DNA of 64,000 nt from a virus. This document shows, piece after piece, positions 2,654-18,148 of this stretch. Both the position numbers and the translations under genes were made by a program. The DNA is taken from positions 1-64,000 of the IMG/VR virus record IMGVR_UViG_3300023198_000833; one strand, written 5' to 3'. Every line of letters begins with the position of its first letter. The first letter of the stretch is position 1. The notes beneath the pieces were generated by a model. It worked only from the letters and a program-made list of their open reading frames with translations. It did no database searches and was not told the DNA's origin.

Positions 2654-2735
2654 CGGTGACGAGCGTTACTATTTCACCAGTCAGTAATTCAACTGTAGGC
2701 TCGGTGATCATACACCAATAATCGCATTATCCAAT

Positions 2736-3578
2736 TCATCTGTTTGTCGCCTCGAAAAAGAAGTCAAATAATCTGTATAGAGCAGCCTTAACAAACGGAT
2801 AAGCGCCTTTCGATACGTCTTCAGGCAACTCATTGAAATGATACTGCCCACCTAACTCAACAGCCTGAGCAATGCCGCCCCATCGTTTCCATCGCTTACC
2901 GTTAATTACTGCATCTTCCCAGTCTGCAATATTTAATCCGTGCGTGCGAGCATAGGTAACATAGGTACGCGTTGCGATAACGCCGAGCTGCGGTGCAATA
3001 TTCCACGCTTGCAGATATTTCGCTGATTTCCAAAGGACCTCTCTATTGGTGTAATCGCTATTGTGACCTTTGAGTGGCAATCCCCAAGCGTGCATGTTTT
3101 CACATAGATCTTCATCGACAGTATTAACATTGTAACACGACCTGATTTTACAGCCGGTCGGGAATGATAGATAAGCGATTCTATCCACTGGTACTATATC
3201 GAGTAATCGATACATGTACTCAATATAATTTGGTACTGGGTCCTCACCTGTTCCAAGCTCCCATTTCATATTCGGATAATGATCTACACATTGTTTAATT
3301 AATTCGAGATCAGTAGTATGCAAATGCACATAGTCATACGGCAAATCCTCAATGTGTGCGGGGTCCTCGCCGCCCTTAAGAAAATGATCTTGAGCGATGA
3401 TTCTATTAGGCCCTACGAAATCTCGTAAGCTCTTCGGTGTGAATCCCGTATATCCACCCAGCGGATTAACTTGACTCCATGAACAAATAAATCCAATAGG
3501 TACTGGGTAATTTGTAGTCATCAAAACGATATCTTTTGAGTATGGGCTGACGTACAGCTGTGGCCAAATTGTATTCAT
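2736..3578 (-). CDS. hypothetical protein (280 aa)
   Basis: Long ORF with good coding look. No motif recognised. Confidence 0.35.
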   Translation of the reverse strand: MNTIWPQLYVSPYSKDIVLMTTNYPVPIGFICSWSQVNPLGGYTGFTPKSLRDFVGPNRIIAQDHFLKGGEDPAHIEDLPYDYVHLHTTDLELIKQCVDHYPNMKWELGTGEDPVPNYIEYMYRLLDIVPVDRIAYLSFPTGCKIRSCYNVNTVDEDLCENMHAWGLPLKGHNSDYTNREVLWKSAKYLQAWNIAPQLGVIATRTYVTYARTHGLNIADWEDAVINGKRWKRWGGIAQAVELGGQYHFNELPEDVSKGAYPFVKAALYRLFDFFFEATNR

Positions 3579-3588
3579 AATATCTCCT

Positions 3589-3876
3589 TTACCAATCTAA
3601 ATGTTTTAAACACGCAATACTAAACACAGCACCTACGGCTACATCTAACAATTCTTCTCGTATCCTAATACGATCGCCGCCGTGAACCGCTTCAATAAGT
3701 TCGGTGTATTCTTCAGTAATCATACCTAATATTTCATGTCGAGATACGAATGTTTGTGAGCTCTTTTGAATCAATCGAAGATCTAATTTTGCTTCGAGTG
3801 CTTTAAAAGCTTCGATGATTTCGCCTTCAGATACCTGTTCACGTTTCATAATCCAACATTCCTTTCTGCCCACCAA
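3589..3876 (-). CDS. MazG-like all-alpha NTP pyrophosphohydrolase (small)
   Basis: EEYTELIEAV ... REELLDVAVGAV resembles the EExxE/EELxD MazG core. Confidence 0.4.
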   Translation of the reverse strand: MVGRKECWIMKREQVSEGEIIEAFKALEAKLDLRLIQKSSQTFVSRHEILGMITEEYTELIEAVHGGDRIRIREELLDVAVGAVFSIACLKHLDW

Positions 3877-4361
3877 TCAGGCGGATCACAATCTAATTTT
3901 AAATTATTGATTTCGACAAATTCATCAACTGCTCTGGCTACACCGAGAAAATCAAAGTAATCGTGGCCGCAGATTATTCCATGTTGTTTTAATTTTGGAT
4001 ACCAACATTCAAGATCAACTTTAACATTTTTATAAGCATGACTTGCATCGATATAAATAAAGTCAAATTGATTATCATTGTATTCAATAGATGCTTCATG
4101 CGATAATGCGCGATGAATTTTTACTTTAGGATTGTTTTTAAAACGGTTTACTACTTTAGGATAATTTATTTCAATACTTTGGTTACGATGTTTAGCCGTA
4201 TGTCCAGTAATAGTAGAATCCCAAATATCTACAAGTATAAGTTGCTTTATTGGAAGACGTAAAAGTATACTGTGAGCATGATCTCCAAGTCTTACACCAA
4301 TCTCTGCACCAACTAAAGGACGCTTAAATTTATTAAATACTGCTCGCATAGCTGGTCTCAT
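3846..4361 (-). CDS. class I SAM-dependent methyltransferase
   Basis: VGAEIGVRLGDH motif I-like. FDFIYIDASH ... ICGHDY is typical of TylF/CmcI-like O-methyltransferases. Confidence 0.45.
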   Translation of the reverse strand: MRPAMRAVFNKFKRPLVGAEIGVRLGDHAHSILLRLPIKQLILVDIWDSTITGHTAKHRNQSIEINYPKVVNRFKNNPKVKIHRALSHEASIEYNDNQFDFIYIDASHAYKNVKVDLECWYPKLKQHGIICGHDYFDFLGVARAVDEFVEINNLKLDCDPPDWWAERNVGL

Positions 4362-4696
4362 AATCCAACATTCCTTTCTCTATTAATTGCAAAACAACTA
4401 TCATCGCCGTTTGATTTTTTATCGTTTATTAATATGCGATCACCATGGCTGACGCCCATGATTAAATGATCCCAGAACAATTTCTGTTCACGTAACATAA
4501 TCTCAAGTCGAGATCTGCAAGATTCTTTTCGAGCTGTCATGAGAACAATACAGCAACCTTCCTTCTCCCATAAATCAAATGAATTTTTTACGCCCGGTAA
4601 TATAAACGGCGCTTGGGACCATTGATATCCGGCACCTTTACCGTGATGCTGGAATATGCAACCGTCAATATCTATTATAATTGTTTTAGGTATCAT
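4358..4696 (-). CDS. HAD-superfamily phosphatase-like protein
   Basis: N-terminal IIIDIDGCIF (DxDG motif I). Confidence 0.45.
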   Translation of the reverse strand: MIPKTIIIDIDGCIFQHHGKGAGYQWSQAPFILPGVKNSFDLWEKEGCCIVLMTARKESCRSRLEIMLREQKLFWDHLIMGVSHGDRILINDKKSNGDDSCFAINRERNVGL

Positions 4697-5910
4697 AATT
4701 TTCTATATCCACCGTATTCCTCCCACCATGAATCATCGTTCTTACGGCCCTCGAACAAATCGTTGAGGCACTTATCTAACAAACTAAAGTCAGGTTTCGA
4801 CACTTCCCATAAGCCATCGATTAAGGCTTTACGCATACCTTCACGCTTATCAAAAAATCGAACAGCTTTTAATAAATCGCCCGGCTGACTAATTCGATTC
4901 TGAGAATCCAATGGCAAATATTTCTCGAGCGGGTCAAAGGTAAACGGTGCACCTCGCCCATAGAATAACGGCATACATCGCTGAGCTAAAAGCGTCCGTA
5001 ATTTACCAGTGTAGAAATTATCTCCAGCGGCTACGCATGGACAACATACGGCGTCGGCCAAAACTTCTACAACTTGATTAGGTTTGATCACGCCCATCAT
5101 ATACTCTGGATCATAACCTGAAAAATGCTCCCAGCCTTTACCGTACAATTTCATACCAACTATTTTCAATATTTCAATATCCGCTTCCGGCAACAAAATA
5201 TTTGACCATGCATCGTCACGCCCTCTGAATTTACAGCCATCCTTGATGTGGGCGTGGGAAACGATGGTACACGGCTTAGTCTTTTCACGCTTAACTCGAG
5301 TATGTTCGCACCAATTTTCGGCGCCGGCATATACCTCACGTACTTCGTATTGTTGAAACTTGATTGTGCGAGTCCATTCATGCGTCCGTTGAGATAAGAG
5401 AGCGTACGGAATTACATGATCCCATCCTAAACTCATTTCACCCTCTCGAGGATATGAACGCGGATCATTATTAATAACAATTCTCGGCAGCTTAAAGTGC
5501 TGTAAAATATTGAGAATCGGTCCTACGTATCGAACCCCGCATGCTTGCACGCCTGAGGCTGTTGGATTACCTATCCAGCTTAAAGTTGAAGCGTACCCCG
5601 CAATATTCACGTAAACATCAGGATCAACGGCCTCCACGTTCTCTATATCGCGGTTCCAGCACTCCTGTTGGTATTTAATTGTGGACTCATTACTGAGGCC
5701 TTGTAAGGCGGATTCGATGTAAATAAGGCCTTTCGGCAACTTGCCTCTCCATTGACCGAAGTAAACAACCTGTATGTCCTTATTTTCCAGCAAATGGTTG
5801 ATAACACCCTCTGTCTCACCTTGCTCGCCTACAGCGCTATTTAAGGCCGCCTGTTCACGTGTATAGAACACACCGCCTACCTTACTAATCAATACTGTTT
5901 TCATTTCCAA
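4693..5910 (-). CDS. hypothetical protein (405 aa), possible glycosyltransferase
   Basis: Size and context only. No firm motif. No visible similarity to T4 alpha/beta-glucosyltransferases. Confidence 0.3.
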   Translation of the reverse strand: MEMKTVLISKVGGVFYTREQAALNSAVGEQGETEGVINHLLENKDIQVVYFGQWRGKLPKGLIYIESALQGLSNESTIKYQQECWNRDIENVEAVDPDVYVNIAGYASTLSWIGNPTASGVQACGVRYVGPILNILQHFKLPRIVINNDPRSYPREGEMSLGWDHVIPYALLSQRTHEWTRTIKFQQYEVREVYAGAENWCEHTRVKREKTKPCTIVSHAHIKDGCKFRGRDDAWSNILLPEADIEILKIVGMKLYGKGWEHFSGYDPEYMMGVIKPNQVVEVLADAVCCPCVAAGDNFYTGKLRTLLAQRCMPLFYGRGAPFTFDPLEKYLPLDSQNRISQPGDLLKAVRFFDKREGMRKALIDGLWEVSKPDFSLLDKCLNDLFEGRKNDDSWWEEYGGYRKL

Positions 5911-6512
5911 TATTCCTCATAAGTTTTAATGGTTCCAATGTCCCACCAATTCGGGTCATGTATTACAATTGCTTCACCGTCAATCTTTTTAAGAAACTCT
6001 AATGTATCCTGATAATGATGAGCCCATTGAATAGCATCTCGATCTAATTGCATCCAGCCTGCTAATTGTCGACCGCGGTACCAAGTTAACGCTCCTGATT
6101 TAATCGGATCATCAATCGCCATTACTGTATGGCCGATTGGTTTTGGGTCTTCAAGTTCAACTGAATAAACATTATCACAAAACGCAACAATAACTCGATC
6201 TTCAAAACCGAGAGCCGTATCTGGCAATAATTGACTAATGGCCATCGGTACACCGAGCGGCACTTCTTGAACTAAATATTCGATAGGTTCGTTAGGGTAG
6301 TAATGCTTAACAATCAATGGGATAATACTGTTAGATGGAATCACAATACTTATGGGAGTTATTTTTGATCGTATAAAGAAATCAATACTGGAAGTTATAA
6401 CTGGCTTATGATTACGTAATGGTAATAACGGTTTATTCGGTAGGCGAGTTGCTAAGCCTCCTGCTAAGATCAATCCTCGATTCATTTTATCATCCTTAAT
6501 ATTGCCGGCCAC
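5901..6512 (-). CDS. sugar-phosphate nucleotidyltransferase (MurU/RmlA-like NTP-transferase)
   Basis: N-terminal GLILAGGLATRLP is the GGxGTRL signature of sugar-1-phosphate nucleotidylyltransferases. Confidence 0.55.
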   Translation of the reverse strand: MAGNIKDDKMNRGLILAGGLATRLPNKPLLPLRNHKPVITSSIDFFIRSKITPISIVIPSNSIIPLIVKHYYPNEPIEYLVQEVPLGVPMAISQLLPDTALGFEDRVIVAFCDNVYSVELEDPKPIGHTVMAIDDPIKSGALTWYRGRQLAGWMQLDRDAIQWAHHYQDTLEFLKKIDGEAIVIHDPNWWDIGTIKTYEEYWK

Positions 6513-6598
6513 CCCGAAGGATAACCGGCGATAGTTTATGCAAACCTCATTGGTTTTATTGTACCACCAGCGTAGGCCGCATTGATATTTCTACACTG

Positions 6599-7603
6599 CT
6601 ACGGCGCAGTGCCCTTGAACATGTTCCCGAACATTCCGGATAAGTCCATCAACGACATCGACTGTTGGCCAGTCGGAATGCCGAACATTTGCAATGATGG
6701 CCCTATCTTTTCTGCAAACTTTAAAGCAACGACGTTAGCACCGCCCTCACCTACAAGTGCTTCTTGTAATAATCGCTTGCCTTCAGCTTCTGATTTGTAT
6801 ATCTCCAGCTGGCCAGCGGCCTGCGCTTCGAGTTGATATTTTTCAGCGTCAGCTGCAAGCTTAACGCTCTCTGCTTTACCCTCGGCGTCCTGTATCGCAG
6901 CAAGCTTTAAACCTTTAGCATCGTTCTCTAATTTCTTAGCCATTTCATCTGAGGCTTCAGCAAGACGCTTATTAACTTCGATTTCTTGATCAGCTAACTT
7001 CTTATCCTCGATCTTTTTCTGAAATAACGGATCGAACTCGTAATTCCGAATCAAGACATCTTGAATCTGAATCGCTGGATACTCGGATAACGACAGTTGC
7101 AAGGCATCCTTAGCCAAGTCTTGAATCGTGTCTCTGATTTCTCCTTGGTAAATTTCTTCAGCCTCATACTTACCAATTGCTATACGCGATACTGACCGGA
7201 CTTGCGGAGCTAACACATCAACTTCGAATGTAGGTCCAACAGACTCATGCAAACTCGGCACGTCGTTTTTAGCTAACGAGTAAATTGTAGTCAAGTCGAC
7301 TGAAATCTTTTGGCCGTCCTTTGTTTTACATTGGAGGGTATGATATTCTTCCCGTCCTTTAGAGTCAACTGCAGGAAAAGATCTGGCTGATACTCGATAG
7401 ACAAAAACAGATGTCTTTACTCGATTGTATAAACACCAGCCCATTAGCACAGGCTCGGTATCTATATCTTTTTGGAGCTTATTAACTTGAACTCCAACTT
7501 CGGTTGCATCTATGTCTGTTAATCCAGCGGTACATAACAGTGCAACGACTGCAATTAAACCGAGGGCTGCACAAACGTACAGGATTGTTCTTTTCTTGTT
7601 CAT
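6599..7603 (-). CDS. SPFH/band-7 (HflK/C-prohibitin-like) membrane protein
   Basis: N-terminal TM helix (ILYVCAALGLIAVVALLC), SPFH-like core, then a long Ala/Glu/Lys coiled-coil tail. Confidence 0.55.
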   Translation of the reverse strand: MNKKRTILYVCAALGLIAVVALLCTAGLTDIDATEVGVQVNKLQKDIDTEPVLMGWCLYNRVKTSVFVYRVSARSFPAVDSKGREEYHTLQCKTKDGQKISVDLTTIYSLAKNDVPSLHESVGPTFEVDVLAPQVRSVSRIAIGKYEAEEIYQGEIRDTIQDLAKDALQLSLSEYPAIQIQDVLIRNYEFDPLFQKKIEDKKLADQEIEVNKRLAEASDEMAKKLENDAKGLKLAAIQDAEGKAESVKLAADAEKYQLEAQAAGQLEIYKSEAEGKRLLQEALVGEGGANVVALKFAEKIGPSLQMFGIPTGQQSMSLMDLSGMFGNMFKGTAP

Positions 7604-7624
7604 GTTCGTTCTCCTTAAATAAAA

Positions 7625-7879
7625 TTAATGTTTCATGGCTTTCTTGAGCCAAGCTTTAAATTCTTTTCGTTTTTGGGCAACCATTACGTTGATTCCCATT
7701 AAGTGAATGCATGTGCCTTCTTTTGGAATTGGGCGTTTATTTCTGCCCATAATATTGCTGGGCAAGGTGATAGACGATAGCGATACAATAAACTCAGGAT
7801 TAATATCGCGCATTGCTCTGCCTACACTGATCTTGTCGCCGGACTGTTGTATCATAACCTCTTCTATTTCAATAAGCAT
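7625..7879 (-). CDS. hypothetical protein (84 aa), possibly an NfeD-like partner of the SPFH protein
   Basis: Adjacent to the SPFH gene. ORF only. Confidence 0.3.
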   Translation of the reverse strand: MLIEIEEVMIQQSGDKISVGRAMRDINPEFIVSLSSITLPSNIMGRNKRPIPKEGTCIHLMGINVMVAQKRKEFKAWLKKAMKH

Positions 7880-8076
7880 TACATATACCTTTCATACAAT
7901 CGATTAATTTTTTCAGTTTGAAAATCATCGTAGTAACCTAACAGTTTCATTTCGTCTAAGAATCTAATTTCCCAGTCCGTAAAGTTCTTATCGTCGGTAG
8001 CTAATATCTCATCAACCATGTCACCTAAAAAATCATTATCTGTAATCATTTTAAATCGTTCCAAGTATATACGCAT
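7879..8076 (-). CDS. hypothetical protein (65 aa)
   Basis: ORF only. Confidence 0.25.
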   Translation of the reverse strand: MRIYLERFKMITDNDFLGDMVDEILATDDKNFTDWEIRFLDEMKLLGYYDDFQTEKINRLYERYM

Positions 8077-8918
8077 TCATGTGCAGGTTTATCGATACGC
8101 CATCTACTGAAGTGTGCATGTATAAGACGATTTCCGTTTCCGACGGATTGATATGTAACTTCGCACACCCGTCCAAGATCTTCCTGTTCATCGATCGCCA
8201 CGCGTGTTGCATCGTCCATTCCAGAAACGTTAGCGATTTCTCGTAGTTCTCCATCGATATAAACGCTGCATTTGAGAGACCCGACAAGGCCAAGATATTT
8301 TCCATTGCCATCTGCAAATCCTGTCACAATACAATCGACATCTTTTGTAGGTTTAACTTTATACCAATTAGAATAGTTACTTTTCTTTAATACCCAACCT
8401 TCGATATCTAAATCAATCGCATCCTCAATCAATTGTTCACGAGTATCCTCTGGGCGTAATCTAAAGAATGGAGCGAACGGAATAAATCCGTTTGTTTGCA
8501 ATAATTCCTTAGTGGGCTCAAGACGATAACTTTGGAGGTTTTTACCTTCCCACCACGGTACAGCGAACGGCATAAACTCCAAAGTGTCTAACCCGTCTGC
8601 AAGTGCATGTGCTGCATCACCAGCATTGCCGCGTATAACGTATATCTCACCATCTACTGACGATCTCGGTGGCATGATCGCTTGAAGTTTTTTCCACCAT
8701 TTATAATCAACAATATGTGGTCGTAGAACGGTGAGTTCTCGATCAGGCCGAATCGTCCGCTCGAATGCTACAAGCTTGCCGTTATCTTGATTAAATAATG
8801 TGAGTCGATGACCGTTGTATTTATACTGCTTATAGTAAGCAAACTGACCAGTCCAATTTTTTGCTTTTAATCGTTCGTGCGTCCACATATTATCTCCAAT
8901 TAAACTTGGCATTGACAA
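8046..8918 (-). CDS. ATP-dependent DNA ligase (small, T7/Chlorella-virus type)
   Basis: Motif I KYNGHR (KxNGxR), motif III VDGEIYV, motif IV EGWVLKK, motif V YKVKP. Confidence 0.65.
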   Translation of the reverse strand: MSMPSLIGDNMWTHERLKAKNWTGQFAYYKQYKYNGHRLTLFNQDNGKLVAFERTIRPDRELTVLRPHIVDYKWWKKLQAIMPPRSSVDGEIYVIRGNAGDAAHALADGLDTLEFMPFAVPWWEGKNLQSYRLEPTKELLQTNGFIPFAPFFRLRPEDTREQLIEDAIDLDIEGWVLKKSNYSNWYKVKPTKDVDCIVTGFADGNGKYLGLVGSLKCSVYIDGELREIANVSGMDDATRVAIDEQEDLGRVCEVTYQSVGNGNRLIHAHFSRWRIDKPAHECVYTWNDLK

Positions 8919-9041
8919 TATTCATACGGTTCACCGCATCGATATAGTCACTCATTTCTTTTTCCTTAATTGTTTATACCGCTTACTTCCAACGATACGT
9001 CGTTTTATTTTTCCGGGAATTCTAACTTCTATTACTTTCAT

Positions 9042-9902
9042 TTAAAACTCCTCATCTTTTAATTGTTCTTCAAACACATGCCTGTAATTATCACACATTC
9101 GTAATGAGGCGATCCCCCACTCTAATAATCGCTTGCCGATAATATTCTCATCTTTATTAGGCTGTTCAATTTGCATCGGTGATACAAGATTCAATTTCAT
9201 CAACTTGTAATTGTAGTGCCACAGGCCTTCGTCTAAAAATTCGATTATGCTCGCTAATAGTTTAGGCGGCCACGCAGCGGAACGTACTTCTTCTACAATA
9301 TCTTTTCCTTGAACATCAGCCCACAGAATTAATCTTGCTAAAAATTCTTTACGGATACGGGGTACCCCCGGCAAGTTGTCAACCTTATCGCCAGTAAAAG
9401 CAAAAAACTCTGGCAGGAGTCGTGGGGGTACCCCGTACTTCTCAAGGACTTTAGCTGAATCCCAAAAATATAATTGAGACTTGAATGATTTTAATACTTG
9501 CACTTTATCGTTGACTGATTGTAATAAATCGTGATCATTAGTATAAATATAGTGCGGACCTATTGCAACTTGACTTATTGAATGCATAAGGTCATCAGCC
9601 TCATACCCGCGCTTTTCGCACGTAGGCCAGATTTGCTTGAGAAAAGTTTTGAATTTATTAAGGCGTTTATAGAATGAATCATCAAGAGGTTTACGGTTAG
9701 CTTTATACTGCCCGTCTTTTTTCAAATTCTCAACAGAATCAAAGCATAGCATTAGAGGATGATCAGGAAACTTTTTCTCTAACATTTCGAGAGTACGTAA
9801 TGACCCAAACTCGAGACCCGTAGGTACGCCATCTTTGTTCTTTAAAAAATCCATTTTCGCATGGCATCGTCTTATAAGCATCATGCTATCGACAATGATC
9901 AT
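9042..9902 (-). CDS. 5'-3' exonuclease / flap endonuclease (Pol I N-terminal domain-like)
   Basis: MIIVDSMMLIRR start, YEADDLMHS acidic cluster, helix-hairpin-helix-like C-terminal region. Confidence 0.65.
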   Translation of the reverse strand: MIIVDSMMLIRRCHAKMDFLKNKDGVPTGLEFGSLRTLEMLEKKFPDHPLMLCFDSVENLKKDGQYKANRKPLDDSFYKRLNKFKTFLKQIWPTCEKRGYEADDLMHSISQVAIGPHYIYTNDHDLLQSVNDKVQVLKSFKSQLYFWDSAKVLEKYGVPPRLLPEFFAFTGDKVDNLPGVPRIRKEFLARLILWADVQGKDIVEEVRSAAWPPKLLASIIEFLDEGLWHYNYKLMKLNLVSPMQIEQPNKDENIIGKRLLEWGIASLRMCDNYRHVFEEQLKDEEF

Positions 9903-9905
9903 ATT

Positions 9906-9992
9906 ATTTGCCCTTCCTAATTAGCATTATTGCGAAAAACACTACAATGGCTGTCATCATTAAATAACTTATCGCAAATACTGCTGGCATCG
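9906..9992 (-). CDS. 28-aa hydrophobic micropeptide (MPAVFAISYLMMTAIVVFFAIMLIRKGK)
   Basis: Not in the ORF track. Strong SD (TAAGGAGAATAACG ATG). Single predicted TM helix. Sits between a terminator and the FEN gene. Confidence 0.3.
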
Positions 9993-10011
9993 TTATTCTC
10001 CTTAAAAATAA

Positions 10012-10042
10012 GACCGCCGCCGCTTACCACAAGCGACGACAG
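10012..10042 (-). terminator. rho-independent terminator (minus strand)
   Basis: Minus-strand GUCGUCGC-UUGUGGUAA-GCGGCGGC hairpin followed by UCUUAUUUUU. Confidence 0.45.
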
Positions 10043-10210
10043 TCGGGTAAATGATTAGCGCGTTAGGAATGCGGACCATTATGGATGGAACTAATCGCTT
10101 TGTTCGTTTTCTCCGTTTAAGTTATTGTTTAATCTGAAAGCAACTCTGCTCAACCGCTGAGCTTCCCGCTCCATAGCAACTGTCATACTGAATAGAGAGT
10201 TGCTATGGAG

Positions 10211-10234
10211 AGCGGGATTGGATTTGAACCAATA
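10211..10234 (-). other. tRNA 3'-half-like module (T-arm ATTGG-TTCAAAT-CCAAT) followed by an 18-bp hairpin. No 5' half.
   Basis: T-loop consensus TTCRANY on the minus strand. The expected acceptor partner GAGCGGG is absent. The adjacent 10163-10215 region forms a long hairpin. Confidence 0.3.
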
Positions 10235-10370
10235 ACCGAGTGCTAAGTAAATAACCTTCGACCGAACAAACATCCAAGTCTTAGTCTGGAGCAATAGTCT
10301 AAGGCTTATTGTTTTCTGAGGATACCCTCAGGTGTATGCCAATTCCACCACTCGGCGGTACGATTTAAAA

Positions 10371-10395
10371 TCGCCGAGGCAGGACTCGAACCTGC
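10371..10395 (-). other. tRNA 3'-fragment-like element (T-arm GCAGG-TTCGAGT-CCTGC + CTCGGCG) nearly identical to the T-arm of tRNA-Lys
   Basis: No complementary 5' acceptor within 100 nt. The pseudo-acceptor CTCGGCG instead pairs with CGCCGAG at 10350-10358. Confidence 0.3.
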
Positions 10396-10436
10396 AAAAA
10401 CAATTTTTTAAACTGAAGCTCAATCTAAACCTGCGC

Positions 10437-11168
10437 TCATTTTAAAATATATCCGAGTAAGGTTTCGCCCACCATTAAATTGTAGGTAACCTCTCGGCTA
10501 TTCGCTTGCTCACGTGCAGCTTTAACTGCATCGCTTAAAAGATTGATACGTGTTAACATTTCATCACGTCGAGATTCTGGAATTGCACCAGATATATGAA
10601 TTGTTGACCAGTGACCAACTGTTTTATCAACTGAGATTAAATCAGTTTGGGCAGGGTGCTTATCAGTAGCATCATATTTAACGATAACTTCGGCCTTCTT
10701 CTGAGTCTTAATTGTTTTCTCAGCTTGAGTGACCCAGCAATTTTTTGCTTCATCCATCGACCAGACACGATCCGTCGGTAAGACTGGCAACTTTTCAATT
10801 AAAGTTCGCATATCTACAAGTTGCTTTTCGATAAACATGAGAACGGTTACTGGGATACCAGTTAATAACGGGTCATCTCCGATTTGAATATCTCCAGTTG
10901 CTTTCGTATTGCCCATGTCTTGAGTAACTACTACGTCAATGAAGTCGCTTAAAATCGATTTTAAAATTATCAATTGATCTTCGACGTGTACCTGCACGCG
11001 TCGATTTTCCGCGGGTAACATTTCGCCGTCATCGGCTATGGGTTGATAGGTTCGAGAAATACCAGTCACCTTATCTTTATGAAAGACTCGATGATGTACT
11101 TCAGTTAACAATTTTGCTGCTCTCGATTTCTTGCCTTTAACTAAGGCGACTACTTGATTCAATTGCAT
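10437..11168 (-). CDS. hypothetical protein (243 aa)
   Basis: Long ORF. No motif recognised. Confidence 0.4.
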   Translation of the reverse strand: MQLNQVVALVKGKKSRAAKLLTEVHHRVFHKDKVTGISRTYQPIADDGEMLPAENRRVQVHVEDQLIILKSILSDFIDVVVTQDMGNTKATGDIQIGDDPLLTGIPVTVLMFIEKQLVDMRTLIEKLPVLPTDRVWSMDEAKNCWVTQAEKTIKTQKKAEVIVKYDATDKHPAQTDLISVDKTVGHWSTIHISGAIPESRRDEMLTRINLLSDAVKAAREQANSREVTYNLMVGETLLGYILK

Positions 11169-11654: not shown

Positions 11655-11732
11655 CAAAGTCTCTCAAACATCATTTTAGAGGCCTCTATTTAATTATATA
11701 GCTGCGTTTTTAAGTGATAAAAAAGGCCACCC

Positions 11733-11754
11733 TAATGGGTGGCCTTGGTGCGGT
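11733..11754. terminator. bidirectional rho-independent terminator
   Basis: GGCCACCC-TAAT-GGGTGGCC hairpin flanked by A5 on one side and a T-rich run (GGTGCGGTTTATTTT) on the other. Confidence 0.55.
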
Positions 11755-12245: not shown

Positions 12246-12269
12246 TTCTATCTCCTATAAAAAATTTAT

Positions 12270-12299
12270 GGGGCAGCTGACATTAGCATCGACTGCCCC
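12270..12299 (-). terminator. rho-independent terminator (minus strand)
   Basis: GGGGCAG...CUGCCCC 7-bp stem followed on the minus strand by AUAAAUUUUUUAU. Immediately after the stop at 12306. Confidence 0.5.
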
Positions 12300-12305
12300 A
12301 TTGTG

Positions 12306-12713
12306 TTAGTCCTCGACGGTTGCCAATAACTCGTCGACGTTGATGCCCTGAGCGGTGAGCTGCTCTTTGAGTTCGGACATCTTTTCCTGCAGTTTGATAA
12401 GACGCTTCGCACGTCCACGGTCTGCGGCCGACCCAAGTTTCTTCGCCTCTTCCGCTTGGTCACGGAACAAGCTTCCCTTGTAGTCCATTTCGGCGGCCCG
12501 GAATTCGTAAAAGAGATAGTCGGCTGAGAAATCTCTTTTCTTCAGAGCACGATGTAACTTGAAATCGAATCCTTCGGGAACAGCGTCCTTGAAAGGATAA
12601 AGCTCTGGGTCTTTGTTTCCGATACCCGAAAAATCAACGCGACCAGTCTTCTTAGGTTCTGGCTTTGTGATAGTGGGTTTTGCCGTCGCGGCCTGTCCTG
12701 GTTTCTTTGCCAT
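12306..12713 (-). CDS. small basic protein, paralogue family member 1 (PxGFDFKxH ... KLGS ... QLTxQGIxV)
   Basis: Clear paralogy with 13248..13631. Confidence 0.45.
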   Translation of the reverse strand: MAKKPGQAATAKPTITKPEPKKTGRVDFSGIGNKDPELYPFKDAVPEGFDFKLHRALKKRDFSADYLFYEFRAAEMDYKGSLFRDQAEEAKKLGSAADRGRAKRLIKLQEKMSELKEQLTAQGINVDELLATVED

Positions 12714-12734
12714 CCATGGGCTCCTTAATACTGC

Positions 12735-13157
12735 TTACTTCGATTGACATGCGGATAGTTTCTTTTGAACTTTCAAAAGCTCCGCGATTAACTTAACTTC
12801 TTCAGGTTGAGTTTCTTTAGTCACAATCTTGTAATGATGATATCGACCTCTTTCAGCGCCGCATACTATATTGTATAAATATCGCCATAAGTCACGGTGT
12901 CCAGACCGCACTATAAGTCGGTCTGCAAACGTATGGCAAATCTCATGACAAATGGTTTCGTCATACTTACCTTGCTCCTGCATGACATAATTGAGATTGT
13001 AATTACACATCAGTCGGTTTGCTTGACCAGCTGTCGAGCTGACTTTTGTTGTCCATTTGATTTTCGGTAACCTCTTATCAAAATTCTTATGAATATAAAC
13101 GCGTTCTAATAAAAGGTTCCACCAAAACTCATGTCTTTCTTTTACCCAATTAATCAT
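12735..13157 (-). CDS. SprT-like zinc metallopeptidase domain protein
   Basis: HEICHTF (HExxH) motif. The listed ORF start (13187) lies inside the conserved 5' leader. The ATG after the SD ATAGGAGATAGTAca is near 13157. Confidence 0.45.
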   Translation of the reverse strand: MINWVKERHEFWWNLLLERVYIHKNFDKRLPKIKWTTKVSSTAGQANRLMCNYNLNYVMQEQGKYDETICHEICHTFADRLIVRSGHRDLWRYLYNIVCGAERGRYHHYKIVTKETQPEEVKLIAELLKVQKKLSACQSK

Positions 13158-13174
13158 TGTACTATCTCCTATAA

Positions 13175-13245
13175 TTGTATGTCTCATCAGGCGGTGGCTT
13201 ACAAGACCATTCCGCGACGCCGGAATCCGTTCCGACGTTTCGACA
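13175..13245 (-). ncRNA. type II hammerhead ribozyme (copy F)
   Basis: Minus-strand UGUC-GAAA-[stem III CGUCGGAA/UUCCGGCG]-U-C^-[stem I GCGG-AA-UGG..CCA-CCGC]-CUGAUGA-GACA. Loop I UUGUA pairs with the 3' flank UACAA. Confidence 0.8.
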
Positions 13246-13247
13246 AA

Positions 13248-13631
13248 TTACGAACTGCTTTCCGTAGCAGCTTCGAGCAGAGCTTTAACATCAATGCCCT
13301 GTTCAGTAAGCTGTGCTTTGAGTTCTTCCATCTTTTCATTGAGTCGAATCATTTGACGCTTCTTAGCGCGTTCTGCAGGTGAGCCGAGTTTGCGGCATTC
13401 TTCAGCCTTGCTCCTGAACAATTTAGCTTTCCAATCCAAGCCAGCGGCGACGTGATCGTAGTACATCGCATCGTCTTTGAAGTTTTTCTTTTTCAAGACT
13501 TTGTGAACCTTGAAATCGAATCCATCAGGAATCATTACTTCGTACGGTTCTTCTGAAATTTTGAACGCTGTACGAGCGACGACCTTCTTTTCTGTTTCGA
13601 CGACTTTTGTTTTTGTGTTTGCTTTTGCCAT
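13248..13631 (-). CDS. small basic protein, paralogue family member 2
   Basis: PDGFDFKVHKVLKKKNF ... KLGS ... QLTEQGIDV, parallel to 12306..12713. Confidence 0.45.
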   Translation of the reverse strand: MAKANTKTKVVETEKKVVARTAFKISEEPYEVMIPDGFDFKVHKVLKKKNFKDDAMYYDHVAAGLDWKAKLFRSKAEECRKLGSPAERAKKRQMIRLNEKMEELKAQLTEQGIDVKALLEAATESSS

Positions 13632-13665
13632 TGTACTATCTCCTAGATTAAAAGTTGTAAGACTA

Positions 13666-13722
13666 TCTGAGCCTCATCAGTACCGCCTATTAACGGCAGA
13701 CGCCCGTGAGGGCGTTTCGGCT
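13666..13722 (-). ncRNA. type II hammerhead ribozyme (copy G)
   Basis: AGCC-GAAA-[CGCCC UCAC GGGCG]-U-C^-[UGCCGU..GGCGGUA]-CUGAUGA-GGCU. Stem II (AGCC/GGCU) is a compensatory variant. The upstream stop codon UAA overlaps the stem II strand. Confidence 0.75.
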
Positions 13723-14003
13723 TATTCATAATAGTGATTCGATTGGTCTACTGATTGCTCAATGTATACTCGCTCCCATTTCTCAGCGGTAGCCGGACCG
13801 TATTTTCCGTCTTCTTCAATTGGATTCTCTGGCTCAAATTCGTTAAGCATTTTTTGAATGTCCATCAAGCTTGGAATCAATTCTGGTTCAGGTTTCGGAA
13901 TGCTTCTTATTTGAGCCAGCGCCACAAGGACGACCATAAGCCCAAATAAAACAGTGATTAACATTACTACTGCCTTCAATCTTTCTTGGTTTCCTCTTGA
14001 CAT
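13722..14003 (-). CDS. small membrane protein (93 aa)
   Basis: TM helix AVVMLITVLFGLMVVLVALA. Confidence 0.4.
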   Translation of the reverse strand: MSRGNQERLKAVVMLITVLFGLMVVLVALAQIRSIPKPEPELIPSLMDIQKMLNEFEPENPIEEDGKYGPATAEKWERVYIEQSVDQSNHYYE

Positions 14004-14019
14004 TTCAATCTCCTATAAC

Positions 14020-14090
14020 ATGCTTGTCTCATCAGGCGGTGGGTGGCAATCCCATTCCGCGACGCCGGAATCCGTTCCGACGTTTCGACA
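14020..14090 (-). ncRNA. type II hammerhead ribozyme (copy E)
   Basis: Same architecture as copy F (UGUC/GACA stem II) with a different loop I (AUUGCCA). Confidence 0.75.
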
Positions 14091-14092
14091 AA

Positions 14093-14404
14093 TTACGAAC
14101 TAAGCTTGTCCAGCTTATCTTGAACTGCCTTGAGTTGAGCTTGTAACTTTTCTTTACGAGCGGCGATCCGTTCGGCCTTCTTAGCCTCGCGTTCGCCCTT
14201 AGTTGCTTCGTGCTGAATCGCCTTTGTTAAGTTGGCTGCTATTTTATCCAGCCGTTCAGCAATTCGGCTTAGTTGAGGACCGAAGCGCTCAATTTGTTCA
14301 GGCGGTAAAGTTAATGTGTTCACGCCTTCAGTAAGGCTGTTAATACCGACTACTGCTTCCGGTGTTACGATTGCAACCTTTTTCGTTTTCTTTGACTTTG
14401 CCAT
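14093..14404 (-). CDS. small Lys/Ala-rich coiled-coil protein (103 aa)
   Basis: ORF with the consensus SD. Confidence 0.4.
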   Translation of the reverse strand: MAKSKKTKKVAIVTPEAVVGINSLTEGVNTLTLPPEQIERFGPQLSRIAERLDKIAANLTKAIQHEATKGEREAKKAERIAARKEKLQAQLKAVQDKLDKLSS

Positions 14405-14438
14405 TTTACTATCTCCTATATAAGAGGTTTAAAAAATT

Positions 14439-14533
14439 TTGACCTGTCTCTTCAGACGGTGGTGGTCAACCCATCCGTGACCTACCCGCTTTGATTATTT
14501 GATAAGGAGAGTTGAACGGGTAGGTTTCGACTA
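14439..14533 (-). ncRNA. type II hammerhead ribozyme (copy D, long loop III)
   Basis: AGUC-GAAA-[CCUACCCG ...28 nt... CGGGUAGG]-U-C^-[ACGG..CCGU]-CUGAAGA-GACA. Loop I UUGACC pairs with the 3' flank GGUCAA (6 bp). The stop UAG of the upstream gene overlaps AGUC. Confidence 0.7.
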
Positions 14534-14968
14534 ACTGATAATAGTTTTGGCCCATGCGATGTCACTCATAAGACCGCTTGACGGATTTTCTATTTCGTCC
14601 GGCATATCACCGTCTTCATAGGCTTTAGTCGATTTATAAATATCACATCCAAAATTAATATTTGCGTAACCGAAAACGTAAACCTTTTCTTTCTCAACTA
14701 CAATATATTCTGGACATGTTCGGCCTTCACAAACGCCGCCGATAATTTCGTTAATGATTGTCAATTTTTGACTTTCATCAGTAATCGAATCATCAACTTT
14801 TTTCTCAATCAATATATCGACAAGAATCAACGGTTCATCTTCAAGAATCTCATCTGTTATATAAAACTTTTGTCCTCGGTATTCAACGACTTCCTTAATT
14901 CCATAGATGCCACCAAATACAGTATGTTCGCCGATTTTAATATCAACTGTTTTAACGTACATAATCAT
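14531..14968 (-). CDS. hypothetical protein (145 aa)
   Basis: ORF with the consensus SD. Confidence 0.4.
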   Translation of the reverse strand: MIMYVKTVDIKIGEHTVFGGIYGIKEVVEYRGQKFYITDEILEDEPLILVDILIEKKVDDSITDESQKLTIINEIIGGVCEGRTCPEYIVVEKEKVYVFGYANINFGCDIYKSTKAYEDGDMPDEIENPSSGLMSDIAWAKTIIS

Positions 14969-14993
14969 TTTACTATCTCCTATAATAAATTGT

Positions 14994-15058
14994 TTGGCAG
15001 TCTCCTCAGCAGCGGAATGCCAATCCGCTGGACGCGAGCAGTTGCCCGCGTTTCGACT
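14994..15058 (-). ncRNA. type II hammerhead ribozyme (copy B)
   Basis: AGUC-GAAA-[CGCGGGC..GCUCGCG]-U-C^-[CAGCGGA UUGGCAU UCCGCUG]-CUGAGGA-GACU-GCCAA. N7 is G, which the core allows. Loop I UUGGC pairs with the flank GCCAA. Confidence 0.8.
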
Positions 15059-15261
15059 TAAATATTTTTGATGTGTCTGATATGTTTACAATCTCTTCTC
15101 GGCATGTGTCGAGTCCAACCCATGCATGAGCATTGAAATTTTCCGCTGGCTAATTCAACAACTGTGTAGGTTCGACCGCTATCACTTTTAACTCGACGAC
15201 GTTCGACAACGTTATTGCTGACACAATAATCTGTATCTGGGCTTGCTTTTCTTGAAGTCAT
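15058..15261 (-). CDS. SWIM-type zinc-finger protein (67 aa)
   Basis: CSCMGW...CKH (CxC-x9-CxH). Confidence 0.4.
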   Translation of the reverse strand: MTSRKASPDTDYCVSNNVVERRRVKSDSGRTYTVVELASGKFQCSCMGWTRHMPRRDCKHIRHIKNI

Positions 15262-15285
15262 TTTAAATCTCCTATAATAAAATGT

Positions 15286-15346
15286 TTGGCAGTCTCATCA
15301 GCAACGGAATGCCAATCCGCTGGACCCGCCGGAGCGGGTTTCGACT
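15286..15346 (-). ncRNA. type II hammerhead ribozyme (copy A)
   Basis: AGUC-GAAA-[CCCGC UCCG GCGGG]-U-C^-[CAGCGGA UUGGCAU UCCGUUG]-CUGAUGA-GACU-GCCAA. Confidence 0.8.
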
Positions 15347-15728
15347 ATTTGCATTTCTTAATTGTTTTCCATAAACTGTTATCATGCCACCATTTTGAAA
15401 TCATCAATTGTAGTGCTTTCTTTTTACCGATGTACCTGATTATTGGGAACCCGCCGCCGGGTCCACAATCGTTAATCGTTTTTGTTTTGATGTTTGCTTT
15501 TGCAAGCCACTCAACAAATTCTTCCCAGTCAGGGTCACAAGTATCAAGGTCGGCAAACCATTTGGTATGTTCTCGAATACTTTTCTGCGTTTCTTTAATT
15601 TCCATTTTCATTAGGTCAGTATCGAATCCTAATGAACAAGCAATCTCATCTGCTTGATCTTTTGCAGCTTTCAAATTCTTGTCTTCAATTTCGTACGTTG
15701 CGGTGAATGTTAATTTGAATGTTGCCAT
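15345..15728 (-). CDS. hypothetical protein (about 127 aa)
   Basis: The listed start 15734 is TTG. The ATG with the SD AGGAGAUUGAAA sits at 15728. Confidence 0.4.
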   Translation of the reverse strand: MATFKLTFTATYEIEDKNLKAAKDQADEIACSLGFDTDLMKMEIKETQKSIREHTKWFADLDTCDPDWEEFVEWLAKANIKTKTINDCGPGGGFPIIRYIGKKKALQLMISKWWHDNSLWKTIKKCK

Positions 15729-15752
15729 TTTCAATCTCCTATGAAAAATGTT

Positions 15753-15821
15753 TAGGCCAGTCTCATCAGTACGGGTTGCCTATGTCCGTAGAACCGCGAG
15801 CCGAGCTCGCGGGTTTCGACT
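15753..15821 (-). ncRNA. type II hammerhead ribozyme (copy C)
   Basis: AGUC-GAAA-[CCGCGAGC..GCUCGCGG]-UU-C^-[UACGG ACAUAGGCAA CCGUA]-CUGAUGA-GACU. Loop I UAGGC pairs with the flank GCCUA. Confidence 0.75.
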
Positions 15822-16044
15822 TTAGGAGATATGACGTTGTGCATAGTTTTGGTCGACCATCATCAGCACCAAAATTTTTGCTTACCACTGCATCTGAATT
15901 TTTAATGGACTTATTTAAGTACGTCTCGCCATTCCATTCGATTTTCGCGTGGTCTTAAGCTACAGTCCCGAGGCTTTCGCCTGTCCAACCGTTCCGTTCC
16001 AGCTCCGTATTATTAACTTATCAAATAATCAATTACAATTACAA

Positions 16045-16072
16045 TTATACCAAGTAGTTCAATATAGTCAAT
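16045..16072 (-). promoter_or_regulatory. near-consensus sigma70 promoter (TTGACT-N16-TATAAT) reading leftward into the ribozyme/small-gene block
   Basis: Minus-strand TTGACTATATTGAACTACTTGGTATAAT, embedded in an AT-rich stretch. The overlapping 62-aa ORF 16013..16201 is probably spurious. Confidence 0.5.
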
Positions 16073-16231: not shown

Positions 16232-18148
16232 TTAGAGCTTAATCTCACCGTCATCGCTGGAGGCTATCGACCAATTCTTATCTGACATTCCGCACGAAAC
16301 TCGAATAGGTACACGGAAGTTTACGGAGGTCGATTCAAACATAGTTGCAATTTGTTTTAAGACACGTTTATCTTTTGCAACTTCAATCGGAGCATACATA
16401 ACTGTTTCATCATGTACACTTGCACAAAATTTAATACCGTGATCTTTCATCCACTTAAAATATCGTGGCGCTGTTGCAACCGTTCGTTCTTTAATTAAAT
16501 CAGCAGCACTCGATTGTATGATCGTATTGAAAGCTCGGTAAGCAGCTTTAGTAGGCAGCTGCCGTTGACGACCATAAGCGTTAAAAACGTAACCTCGAGC
16601 AATTAAGTTATTCGCTGCTTGCTGTGTAACGCGTTTTAAACCTGGCAAAGTATCGTGATAGGTTTGGTAAACCTTTTCTCCTCGCTTAAGACAAAGTAAG
16701 TCAAATAGTTGACCTCGTTGACTGGGTTTGATTTTTTCTTGCTTTATAAATTCTTCAACTGTAGCTGACAAGTCGCTTACTAATTCCATGTTAGCCGCAA
16801 GCATCGATACGACTTTCTTCTTGCCGCCGCCGTACCCGATACAAAAGTTTACGTTTTTAGCGGGCTTACGCGGAATGCCGCACATCTCTGCTACCCACGT
16901 ATGAAAGTCCGTATCAGCGTCTTCTTGATAAGCAGCAATTGCAGCGACGTCTTTAATGTAGTGAATGATAAGTCGAAATTCAACTTGACTATAATCATAT
17001 CGAATAATAACATATCCTTTGGGCGGATGAATTAATTCTTTAGCGGCAGGTGACAATTGCTGAGAGTTAGGTCGACGACAAGACATACGTCCAGTCCTAA
17101 CAATCTGGTTGTAGTCGGGATGCATCAGGCCGTTAACATTATGTTCTTTATACGGGGCTATGAAAAAGTTATGCAAGGTATGCAGCTTACGATAGGTTTG
17201 TATTTTTTTAACGATAGTTGTAAGCTCTTCTGATTCTTGGACAAACGGGTGTGCTCGGTAGGAAGTTAAAGTATCTTTATCGAAAGATGGATCACCTTTA
17301 TCAGTATATCCTAAAACTGGAAGACCGTACTTATTACATAGTACTTCAAAACAATCTGCATTCGTGTGTGGTCGAATTGGAATTCCAGTTAAATGATCAA
17401 GCTCCTCTTCAAGTTTTGATAAATGATATAATGTCGTTAATTGTTTTTTGTCTAATTCGAGTGGGTCAACATATAAGCCGGTTACTTCCATATCGTATAA
17501 GACCGGAGTAAGTTTTGTCTCTGTCTCCCAGACTCCAAGCGTTTGCTCATGTCGTCGTCTTAATATATGTCGGTGCAATTTTCTATTACTAAGAACATCT
17601 TGACAACCGTACTCTCCAATTATATCGCCCGGCACATCACCGTAGTCTTTACTATTGCATCCAGTTAAGTATGCATTCAATCGATTCTCAACTTTTGAGA
17701 TATCTTCTTCAAGCCATTCTAACGATAATGCACTTAAGCTATATTCATATCGATCTGACTGTACTATTTTTGAAAGAGCTAACGTGTCAATCAATTTACA
17801 ATTAAAATCGATTCCATCTTGAGCAATAAAATGAGCATCGAATTTTATGTTATGGTTCACCCATTCTTCACAGCTATTAATAATTTCATCAATCCAATTT
17901 AAAACAGGTTGCAGCGGCACATTCCATTTCTCATGATTACATCTAATAGGTACGTACCAAGCGGGTTGATGTTTATCCGCAGTTATGCAAATGCCAGCAA
18001 CACGGTGACCGTGATATGGACGAAAAGCCTTAACCTTTCGATCAAAGGACGTAGTCTCCATATCACAGTACAAGTGTGTTGCGTTTTTAAGATTAGGCAA
18101 TTCGCTAACATCTTGAACTAATCGCCCACCGTTTTCAAAATTAAGCAT
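16232..18148 (-). CDS. family A DNA polymerase with 3'-5' exonuclease domain (T7-like)
   Basis: Exo I LYCDMETTS. Motif A RYDYSQVEFR. Motif B RKPAKNVNFCIGYGGG. Motif C SVHDET. Confidence 0.85.
   Translation of the reverse strand: MLNFENGGRLVQDVSELPNLKNATHLYCDMETTSFDRKVKAFRPYHGHRVAGICITADKHQPAWYVPIRCNHEKWNVPLQPVLNWIDEIINSCEEWVNHNIKFDAHFIAQDGIDFNCKLIDTLALSKIVQSDRYEYSLSALSLEWLEEDISKVENRLNAYLTGCNSKDYGDVPGDIIGEYGCQDVLSNRKLHRHILRRRHEQTLGVWETETKLTPVLYDMEVTGLYVDPLELDKKQLTTLYHLSKLEEELDHLTGIPIRPHTNADCFEVLCNKYGLPVLGYTDKGDPSFDKDTLTSYRAHPFVQESEELTTIVKKIQTYRKLHTLHNFFIAPYKEHNVNGLMHPDYNQIVRTGRMSCRRPNSQQLSPAAKELIHPPKGYVIIRYDYSQVEFRLIIHYIKDVAAIAAYQEDADTDFHTWVAEMCGIPRKPAKNVNFCIGYGGGKKKVVSMLAANMELVSDLSATVEEFIKQEKIKPSQRGQLFDLLCLKRGEKVYQTYHDTLPGLKRVTQQAANNLIARGYVFNAYGRQRQLPTKAAYRAFNTIIQSSAADLIKERTVATAPRYFKWMKDHGIKFCASVHDETVMYAPIEVAKDKRVLKQIATMFESTSVNFRVPIRVSCGMSDKNWSIASSDDGEIKL

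Follow-up and report, generated by a model that had tools for sequence, protein, structure and literature searches.

Seven type II hammerhead motifs, here called HH1 to HH7, follow one another on the minus strand of IMG/VR virus record IMGVR_UViG_3300023198_000833, within the stretch of 64,000 nucleotides (nt) that we analyzed (positions 1 to 64,000 of that record; hereafter the window). All of them are on the coding strand and all are placed in the intergenic spacers of one block of small phage genes (15821-13180), in the space from the stop codon to the next Shine-Dalgarno (SD) sequence; the remainder of the 64 kb has none. They are conserved throughout a clade of related phages, and their stems covary. 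We consider it very likely that the seven elements are functional type II self-cleaving ribozymes within a phage transcription unit of about 4.3 kilobases (kb), whose transcript they probably cut into single-gene messages. Their identification as type II hammerheads is supported by the core, the topology, a match to the Rfam model and covariation among 29 copies; in this respect the first-pass annotation of this DNA, which had reported seven complete minus-strand motifs between genes, is borne out. Cleavage itself we infer from homology with tested hammerheads, and all of its downstream consequences we infer as well.

Each of the seven units begins with one strand of stem II (s2a: AGUC, UGUC or AGCC), followed by GAAA, a G+C-rich stem III hairpin, UC, a stem I hairpin, CUGANGA and the second strand of stem II (s2b). 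In the standard numbering this order (11.x, G12-A14, A15.1, stem III, U16.1, C17, stem I, C3-A9, 10.x) is that of a type II hammerhead, with stem II open and with stems I and III capped by loops in the units of the array. The units are listed below; bit scores refer to the Rfam Hammerhead_II model RF02276 and to R1, a covariance model of our own that is described further on.

15821-15759, minus strand: HH1, with its pseudoknot extending to 15753; C17 at 15791; Rfam 25.9 bits, R1 36.2 bits.
15782-15778 with 15757-15753, minus strand: pseudoknot of HH1, UAGGC with GCCUA.
15346-15291, minus strand: HH2, with its pseudoknot, UUGGC(A) with (U)GCCAA, extending to 15286; C17 at 15323; Rfam 41.2 bits; stem II takes in part of the gene 1 stop codon, UAG.
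15058-14999, minus strand: HH3, pseudoknot to 14994; C17 at 15031; N7 is G.
14532-14445, minus strand: HH4, pseudoknot UUGACC with GGUCAA to 14439; C17 at 14479; N7 is A; stem III of 44 nt, stem II of 3 base pairs (bp); R1 29 bits.
14090-14025, minus strand: HH5; C17 at 14061.
13722-13670, minus strand: HH6; C17 at 13699; stem II AGCC/GGCU; 3' tail of the CAGAUAGUCUUAC type; Rfam 34.1 bits, R1 41.5 bits.
13245-13180, minus strand: HH7, pseudoknot UUGUA with UACAA to 13175; C17 at 13216.

The core described in the first-pass annotation (C3-A9, G12-A14 and the A15.1-U16.1 pair) is indeed kept in every copy. CUGANGA is present throughout, N being U, U, G, A, U, U and U from HH1 to HH7, as are GAA at G12-A14, the A15.1-U16.1 pair, C17 and the G10.1-C11.1 pair. 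Position 1.1-2.1 is always paired as well (U-A, C-G, C-G, A-U, G-C, U-A and G-C, in the same order). Thus, none of the seven has a mispair at 10.1-11.1, 1.1-2.1 or 15.1-16.1, the rule by which Perreault et al. (2011) accepted a hammerhead. The cleavage triplet of the array copies is GUC. The pairing of the stems that had been asserted for all copies holds in general, with two exceptions: stem II of HH4 (AGUC/GACA) forms three pairs only, and stem III of HH1 carries a C15.2.U16.2 mismatch at its base, one step in from the core pair. Stems I and III nevertheless reach at least 4 bp in all the array copies.

The motifs are far more frequent in the window than in shuffled sequence. A strict descriptor, which requires the core, stem II and no fewer than 4 bp in both stem I and stem III, matches six times in the window; when the 64 kb are shuffled 100 times with dinucleotides preserved, it matches 0.18 times on average and twice at most. 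HH1 is missed because of its mismatch alone. A loose scan (CUGANGA, GAAA within 140 nt and a 3-bp stem II) returns 11 hits, and only the seven in the block also show stems I and III. The search with the Rfam hammerhead model, which had been suggested as a check, gave a divided answer: HH2 passes the gathering threshold of RF02276 (37 bits), HH6 and HH1 are detected below it, and HH3, HH4, HH5 and HH7 are not reported even at E <= 10. Most array copies stay under the threshold because their stems I and III are longer or differently shaped. Since just 4 of the more than 40 copies in related arrays pass, the threshold is insensitive for this group. R1 was built from the 49-nt trimmed cores of 53 copies; the cores were trimmed because MAFFT misaligned the stems of the seven full-length copies. 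All seven are recovered by R1, with 29-41.5 bits. When the filters are turned off, the best remaining match in the 64 kb has E = 0.9, and in control loci whose only resemblance to the units lies in short sequence patterns (605 kb and 210 kb) R1 detected nothing. A scan of genome contigs for CTGATGAGAC..TAGGAGAT produced 111 loci from every phylum; these are chance matches and give no clue to the host, R1 having found no hammerhead in the 80 loci examined.

Further evidence comes from relatives of this phage. By blastn, the block has no nucleotide match among 50,697 phage records, and the best DNA polymerase match among deposited phages, that of Manatee Spring phage, is 38.6% identical; the corresponding region of the Manatee Spring phage record has no hammerhead. 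Polymerase-based searches of IMG/VR and JGI metagenomes did reveal relatives, with 63-72% identity at the amino-acid level. Of these uncultured phages, at least five carry syntenic arrays of 2-7 copies downstream of the DNA polymerase gene, and promoter, leader and array are shared among the relatives in that position. The number of hammerheads per relative is as follows.

L002 (= L201 = L204): at least six.
L200: seven.
L045: five.
L001 (= L202): two.
L203/L206: at least two before the contig end.

The flanking genes are orthologous among these relatives, and the hammerhead stems between them are unrelated in sequence with pairing intact. Orthologous sites illustrate this directly. Between HH1 and its counterpart in L002, pair 1.1-2.1 changes from U-A to C-G and the pseudoknot from UAGGC/GCCUA to UUGGC/GCCAA. 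Between HH6 and its counterpart in L200 (11139, before the orthologue of g6, the sixth gene of the block), stem III is kept, the U-A pair at 1.1-2.1 has again become C-G, and AGUC/GACU takes the place of AGCC/GGCU in stem II. Over the 29 clade copies, 95.2% of the cells are paired and double changes occur at 11 of 13 pairs; 97 double-change cells are seen compared with 29.5 in shuffles, and none of 500 shuffles reaches the observed value. These pair counts are biased upward, the alignments having been fitted to the model, whereas the orthologue comparisons are independent of the fit. If the partners are slid against each other, pairing in the 29 copies falls to 20-45%. The pattern of pairing and covariation is alike in 61 distinct copies from unrelated viral contigs. 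All 13 catalytic core positions are intact in 7 of 7 copies in the window and in 27 of 29 copies in the clade.

These data bear on the view that the elements are non-catalytic repeats in vivo, acting as RNase or protein sites, decay barriers or attenuators, with the core a relic. Four of the seven copies, as we have seen, go unreported by the Rfam model, the predicted tertiary contact is missing in some copies, and most spacers of L001 hold a different hairpin motif, meaning that the slot can be served without a recognisable hammerhead. However, the 13 positions required only for catalysis have stayed intact across the window and the clade while the stems turned over, and a plain structural element would not keep CUGANGA, GAAA and UC. 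Nor are the stem III hairpins terminators, since they lack U-runs. We therefore find a non-catalytic role very improbable.

Some units are closely similar to each other. HH5 and HH7 (14025-14101 and 13180-13256) agree at 94% of 77 nt, a stretch that takes in the final three codons of the upstream genes; their differences are restricted to loop I and the tail. HH2 and HH3 (15267-15328 and 14975-15036) are 94% identical over 62 nt covering stem I, the core and the SD; their stems I and pseudoknots are identical and their stems III unrelated. Such mosaics look like signs of recombination between units. It could then be argued that the hammerhead-SD units are mainly recombination linkers, by which small accessory genes are shuffled as cassettes, with RNA cleavage being secondary. 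Besides the two mosaic pairs, this would fit the variable gene content between conserved units among relatives, the variation in hammerhead number from 2 to 7 and the paralogy of g6 with g8, the eighth gene. Yet any repeated element yields mosaics of this kind as a by-product of homologous recombination, the units mostly share a core of about 20 nt, which is too short for efficient recombination, and neither the conserved catalytic core nor the compensatory changes would be explained. Taken together, these considerations make a primary role as linkers improbable.

The minimum free energy (MFE) fold is the canonical three-way junction for HH2, HH3, HH5 and HH6, and nearly so for HH4. In addition, loop I can form a pseudoknot of 5-6 bp with the 3' tail in HH1, HH2, HH3, HH4 and HH7 (loop-shuffle p of 0.009-0.14 each). 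A contact of this type, with 4 bp or more, characterises the RF02276 family without being obligatory in it. The first-pass annotation had placed this contact in the first four copies and in HH6. The first four stand, HH6 has to be removed from the list and HH7 added to it; neither HH5 nor HH6 has a Watson-Crick pseudoknot between loop I and the 3' tail. A pseudoknot of HH6 on the 5' side instead (loop UAAUAG with CUAUUA 8 nt upstream) was rejected, as it is not kept in the L002 orthologue. HH6 belongs to a subclass of units with loop I GU(U)AAUAG(G), 3' tail CAGNNAGUYUYAC and no Watson-Crick pseudoknot, whose other members are found in L002 (13097, 13907), L200 (9732, 10683, 11139, 11425), L029 (7528) and L045 (947). 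The joint conservation of loop and tail in this subclass suggests a different tertiary contact.

The array is embedded in a well-delimited transcription unit. The window represents a tailed-phage genome, with a structural module including an open reading frame (ORF) of 1666 amino acids, a family A DNA polymerase and one tRNA-Lys; every ORF is on the minus strand. The features that frame the array are these.

16232-18148: family A DNA polymerase gene, upstream of promoter and array.
16044-16071, minus strand: sigma-70-type promoter, TTGACT, a 16-nt spacer and TG-n-TATAAT; predicted start near 16037.
15831-16037, minus strand: untranslated leader, about 247 nt counted from the start to the HH1 cleavage site.
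12250-15741, minus strand: eight identical SD sequences UAGGAGAU, at 15741, 15274, 14982, 14418, 14015, 13645, 13171 and 12257.
11717-11746, minus strand: intrinsic terminator, a 10-bp G+C-rich stem followed by a run of six U, which closes the unit.

The promoter, located between the polymerase gene and HH1, agrees with the consensus at 11 of 12 positions, has an extended -10 element, ranks first among the sites in 10-19 kb and is kept in the relatives L002, L200, L198 and L203. From promoter to terminator, the unit of about 4.3 kb comprises the leader and ten small genes. It had been described as an early operon, for which we find no support; what can be read from the DNA is a promoter and a terminator around a ten-gene unit downstream of the DNA polymerase gene. 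Likewise, the claim of a hammerhead in every spacer holds for the junction between leader and gene 1 and for the next six junctions, and fails for the last three, which have none. Where hammerheads are present, they fit closely between the genes. At HH2, HH3, HH4 and HH6, stem II and the upstream stop codon share 1-2 nt; at HH5 and HH7 the stop codon lies 2 nt before stem II. On the other side, the first seven SD sequences begin 9-27 nt past the hammerhead end (measured to AGGAG), and the predicted post-cleavage 5' untranslated regions (UTRs) are 57-74 nt long. Over the whole 64 kb, the transcribed strand has eight copies of the 8-mer UAGGAGAU, all of them SDs of this unit and 6-8 nt ahead of an ATG.

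The products of the ten genes are mostly without an assigned function; one matches the SprT-like family. The paralogues g6 (13248-13631, minus strand) and g8 (12306-12713, minus strand) share their match in L002, L200 and L045 (44-59% identity to a single protein), and belong to a lysine-rich family. Another ribozyme class was considered for the spacers without hammerheads and rejected, as they match no Rfam family. In the spacer between g8 and g9 (12268-12301, minus strand), a 10-bp hairpin with a 13-nt loop is followed by A3U6 and then by the operon SD; it is an internal terminator-like or stabiliser hairpin in the slot where other junctions hold a hammerhead. A different occupant of that slot is found in L001, where three spacers (13461-13499, 13937-13975 and 14861-14897; the same in L202 and L028) carry a motif of about 40 nt, UUGCCUAGG-hairpin-GUCACNGGUUAA, located between stop codon and SD. 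This motif matches no Rfam family at E <= 5 and is a candidate for another processing element or a new ribozyme. As regards the polymerase, its homologue in L003 (10001-12907) has 968 amino acids, compared with 638 in the window, and matches in two segments, which suggests an insertion, either an intein or an inserted domain.

The leader contains no plausible ORF. Its first 45 nt or so are shared with L002 and the remainder diverges. We considered that it might be a structured non-coding RNA and dropped the idea, the fold z-score being -0.2 against shuffles and the Rfam scan empty at E <= 10. It does contain a motif, GCUGAUGAUGGUCGACC (15851-15867, minus strand), which includes the palindrome GGUCGACC and is retained in L200, L198 and L203/L206 and not in L002 or L045. 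Read as CUGAUGA-UGGUCGACCA-AAAC (15867-15851), this segment was evaluated as a second hammerhead and rejected: G12 is A in the window, 15.1 is C, the supposed stem II is a palindrome without a viable loop, and there is no Rfam match. The motif thus resembles pieces of a hammerhead core without being a hammerhead, and could be an operator or a protein site.

If the seven elements are active, each ribozyme would fold as it is transcribed and cleave just 3' of C17, with a 2',3'-cyclic phosphate on one side of the cut and a 5'-OH on the other. The transcript is predicted to be divided into a leader (about 247 nt), single-gene mRNAs of 468, 292, 552, 418, 362 and 483 nt, and a final 3' RNA of about 1.5 kb on which the last four genes stay together. 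The two products of a cut would part readily because the open stem II (3-5 bp) alone joins them. The upstream product would keep its stop codon and end in the G+C-rich stem III hairpin with the cyclic phosphate. The downstream product would start with its 5'-OH on the stem I hairpin, locked by the pseudoknot in five copies, and would reach the same SD over a uniform distance. In bacterial mRNA decay, RNase E and RNase J are stimulated by a 5'-monophosphate, and hairpins block 3' exonucleases. The payoffs of such processing would accordingly include not only the independence of each cistron from its neighbours and a standardised 5' UTR (ribozyme insulation), but also ends that resist both 5'-end-dependent and 3'-exonucleolytic decay. 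Our conjecture is that the benefit lies in context-independent, individually stabilised cistrons.

Another chemically possible outcome is one in which the excised cistrons are re-ligated into exonuclease-proof circular mRNAs, either by a host ligase of the RtcB type or by a chimeric hammerhead assembled from the stem I half of one unit and the stem III half of the next. The halves of a type II hammerhead are self-contained hairpins joined by stem II only, and successive stem II strands are complementary for cistrons 1 to 4 (GACU/AGUC three times, then GACA/UGUC). This complementarity is to be expected anyway, since nearly all units share GUC/GAC, and it fails for cistrons 5 and 6. Moreover, Perreault et al. 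looked for spliced or circular products of clustered hammerheads and found none (PMC3088659). We regard circularization as extremely improbable.

Processing by seven active ribozymes remains our preferred reading, and several facts weigh against it. The curated Rfam threshold is reached by one copy only. The MFE fold of HH7 alone differs from the hammerhead fold. HH1 has its mismatch, stem II of HH4 is limited to 3 bp and its stem III is very long, and no tertiary contact is recognisable in HH5 and HH6; with such irregularities cleavage rates could differ widely or be low. Seven of ten sites (nine junctions and the leader) are occupied, and the last product would still carry four genes. The covariation counts carry the upward bias mentioned above. 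The phage is uncultured, and deposited phages are as distant as described. Finally, stability and insulation as the benefit are conjecture, and a 2019 review regards the biological purpose of bacterial and phage hammerheads as elusive and their role as unresolved (PMC6765202).

The head of the operon has an additional feature of its own. Two nucleotides 5' of stem II of HH1 lies the sequence AUCUCCUA, the exact complement of the SD of gene 1. This anti-SD and its counterparts in relatives, together with the first hammerhead units of relatives, are as follows.

15823-15830, minus strand: anti-SD AUCUCCUA, pairing with the gene 1 SD at 15741-15734.
L002 12469-12477, L001 12377-12383, L045 936-947, L200 9459-9466 and L198 6097-6104: anti-SD in relatives.
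L002 12479-12542, L200 9469-9535 and L203 2217-2291: first hammerhead unit in relatives.

The anti-SD is present in 6 of 7 distinct clade members, in which the neighbouring leader is divergent, and is missing in L203/L206. Its AUCUCCU has no second copy on the transcribed strand of the window. RNAfold gives, for the window, L002 and L001, an MFE structure in which an 8-11 bp helix between anti-SD and SD closes the first hammerhead (z-scores of -3.3, -3.5 and -2.1, respectively), and the duplex has an energy of -11.2 kcal/mol compared with -7.6 for a generic 3' end of 16S rRNA. The possibility that the anti-SD is simply the SD of a mini-ORF on the plus strand was discarded, because the ATG follows after only 2 nt and is missing at that place in L002. 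A search of viral contigs for an anti-SD combined with the hammerhead pattern added nothing new, as 21 of the 23 loci have no hammerhead and the other two are known relatives. The first hammerhead is also off-canonical in several members of the clade, with C15.2.U16.2 in the window, L002, L198 and L203, and with a U4C core change and a stem III mismatch in L200. Such recurrent imperfection may mean that the first hammerhead is tuned to be slow or conditional. Both imperfect and clamped by the anti-SD/SD helix, HH1 may be regulated rather than constitutive.

These observations raise the possibility of cleavage-gated translation at the head of the operon, either added to simple processing or replacing it for HH1. 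The anti-SD helix of the leader would close HH1 like an extended stem II and hide the ribosome-binding site (RBS) of gene 1. Cleavage would turn the helix into a two-molecule duplex that ribosomes can outcompete, such that gene 1 would be translated only after a slow or conditional ribozyme has fired. The predicted pairing in three phages, the duplex energy, the retention of the anti-SD beside a diverging leader, the uniqueness of AUCUCCU and the repeatedly sub-optimal first hammerhead all agree with this scheme. In E. coli, cleavage of engineered hammerhead and twister switches that have the SD/anti-SD pairing in their open stem increases expression by a factor of 5 to 100 (PMC5052635). On the other hand, the SD is invariant, which precludes a covariation test, and L203/L206 lack the anti-SD. 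The cleaved-off leader could remain bound, held through stem II and 8-11 bp more, or the helix may merely stabilise the folding of HH1. The feature is also confined to HH1, apart from a weaker hint at HH4. We thus view gating as possible but doubtful, with simple processing by all seven units still the preferred explanation. A more elaborate version, in which HH1 is a natural cleavage-gated RBS switch, not a plain processing site, that also releases the leader of about 247 nt, its 3' end capped by the stem III hairpin, as a carrier of an anti-SD acting in trans on the eight UAGGAGAU sites, we consider unlikely.

The hint at HH4 concerns its stem III loop of 24 nt, which carries CUCUCCUUAU (14511-14502, minus strand). 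UCUCCU in this loop is one of four on the transcribed strand of the 64 kb. The orthologue of HH4 in L200 (10683-10747) has CUCCUCC in the stem III loop, and the orthologue in L002 has no such sequence. This is a hint of the same kind as that at HH1, and a weaker one.

Arrays of this kind extend beyond the clade. The pattern of a hammerhead 3' half leading into an SD was found at 61 IMG/VR loci, about half of them with true hammerheads and several forming same-strand arrays. The largest, in unrelated viral contigs, are L062 (IMGVR_UViG_3300033551_000003, 81-11039) with 15 hammerheads in 14.6 kb and L036 (1772-6063) with seven in 4.3 kb; L012, L018, L053 and L054 have three each. The majority of the L062 and L036 units are directly upstream of an SD, and the majority fall under the Rfam threshold. 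With most copies below this threshold, viral metagenomes contain unannotated arrays of 7 to 15 hammerheads.

How does the array compare with known systems? With the RF02276 family it shares the core of 13 nt, capped stems I and III, an open stem II and the GUC triplet, and in 5 of 7 copies a predicted pseudoknot. It differs from that family in the longer or differently shaped stems I and III, in the HH1 mismatch and in HH5 and HH6, which have no recognisable pseudoknot. The first natural type II hammerheads were reported by Perreault et al. in 2011, with a pseudoknot between loop I and the tail in most members (PMC3088659). The same study showed that triple arrays from prophages cleave in vitro and, for A. 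tumefaciens, in E. coli, and proposed that clustered prophage hammerheads process phage RNA into single-gene mRNAs (PMC3088659). Those clusters, in Agrobacterium tumefaciens, Azorhizobium caulinodans and Clostridium scindens (PMC3088659), resemble the present one in having coding-strand hammerheads that bracket single genes, and the proposed role is the same. Here, by contrast, seven consecutive hammerheads, all of type II, stand one per junction, with a stop codon fused on one side and an identical SD at near-constant distance on the other. The genome is that of an uncultured, probably lytic-type phage instead of an integrase-linked prophage, and the first unit is clamped by an anti-SD. Another viral precedent, HHphage of the haloviruses HF1/HF2, has its hammerhead at the beginning of a polycistronic transcript, 13 nt ahead of the start codon, with a mapped 5' end within 3 nt of the cleavage site (PMC3088659). 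However, this hammerhead of an archaeal virus is a high-Mg variant of unusual structure, and it occurs singly, not in an array.

The geometry of HH1 has its closest likeness in engineered SD-masking hammerhead and twister switches (PMC5052635), in which SD and anti-SD likewise form the open closing helix and the SD is set free by cleavage. Those switches are artificial and ligand-controlled, whereas HH1 has no evident ligand-sensing domain and its clamp, unlike theirs, is set off from stem II by an asymmetric loop with the pseudoknot strand. To our knowledge, the only hammerheads that sequester an SD are engineered, none being natural. Full-text literature searches likewise found no description of a natural SD-masking hammerhead, and none of a longer array. 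If functional, the clamp of HH1 would be a natural precedent for engineered RBS-masking ribozyme switches.

For the array as a whole, the nearest engineered analogy is the RiboJ-type insulator of Lou et al. 2012, in which a cleaving hammerhead just upstream of an RBS reportedly removes the variable upstream RNA and leaves a hairpin at the 5'-OH end, making translation context-independent. RiboJ-type insulators are engineered, derive from a type III hammerhead of satellite RNA and are used singly after a promoter; the array is natural and repeated across cistrons. Both the arrangement and its proposed role have been in print since 2011, and the operon described here is a very dense example of them. 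It also offers an unusually clean natural system for addressing the role of hammerheads, a question open since then: seven ribozymes are fused to stop codons at a fixed distance from the SD, and the array is kept across at least six related phages while its stems turn over. Such a layout argues that the selected function is to provide each cistron with defined ends and a standard 5' UTR, the natural counterpart of synthetic ribozyme insulators.

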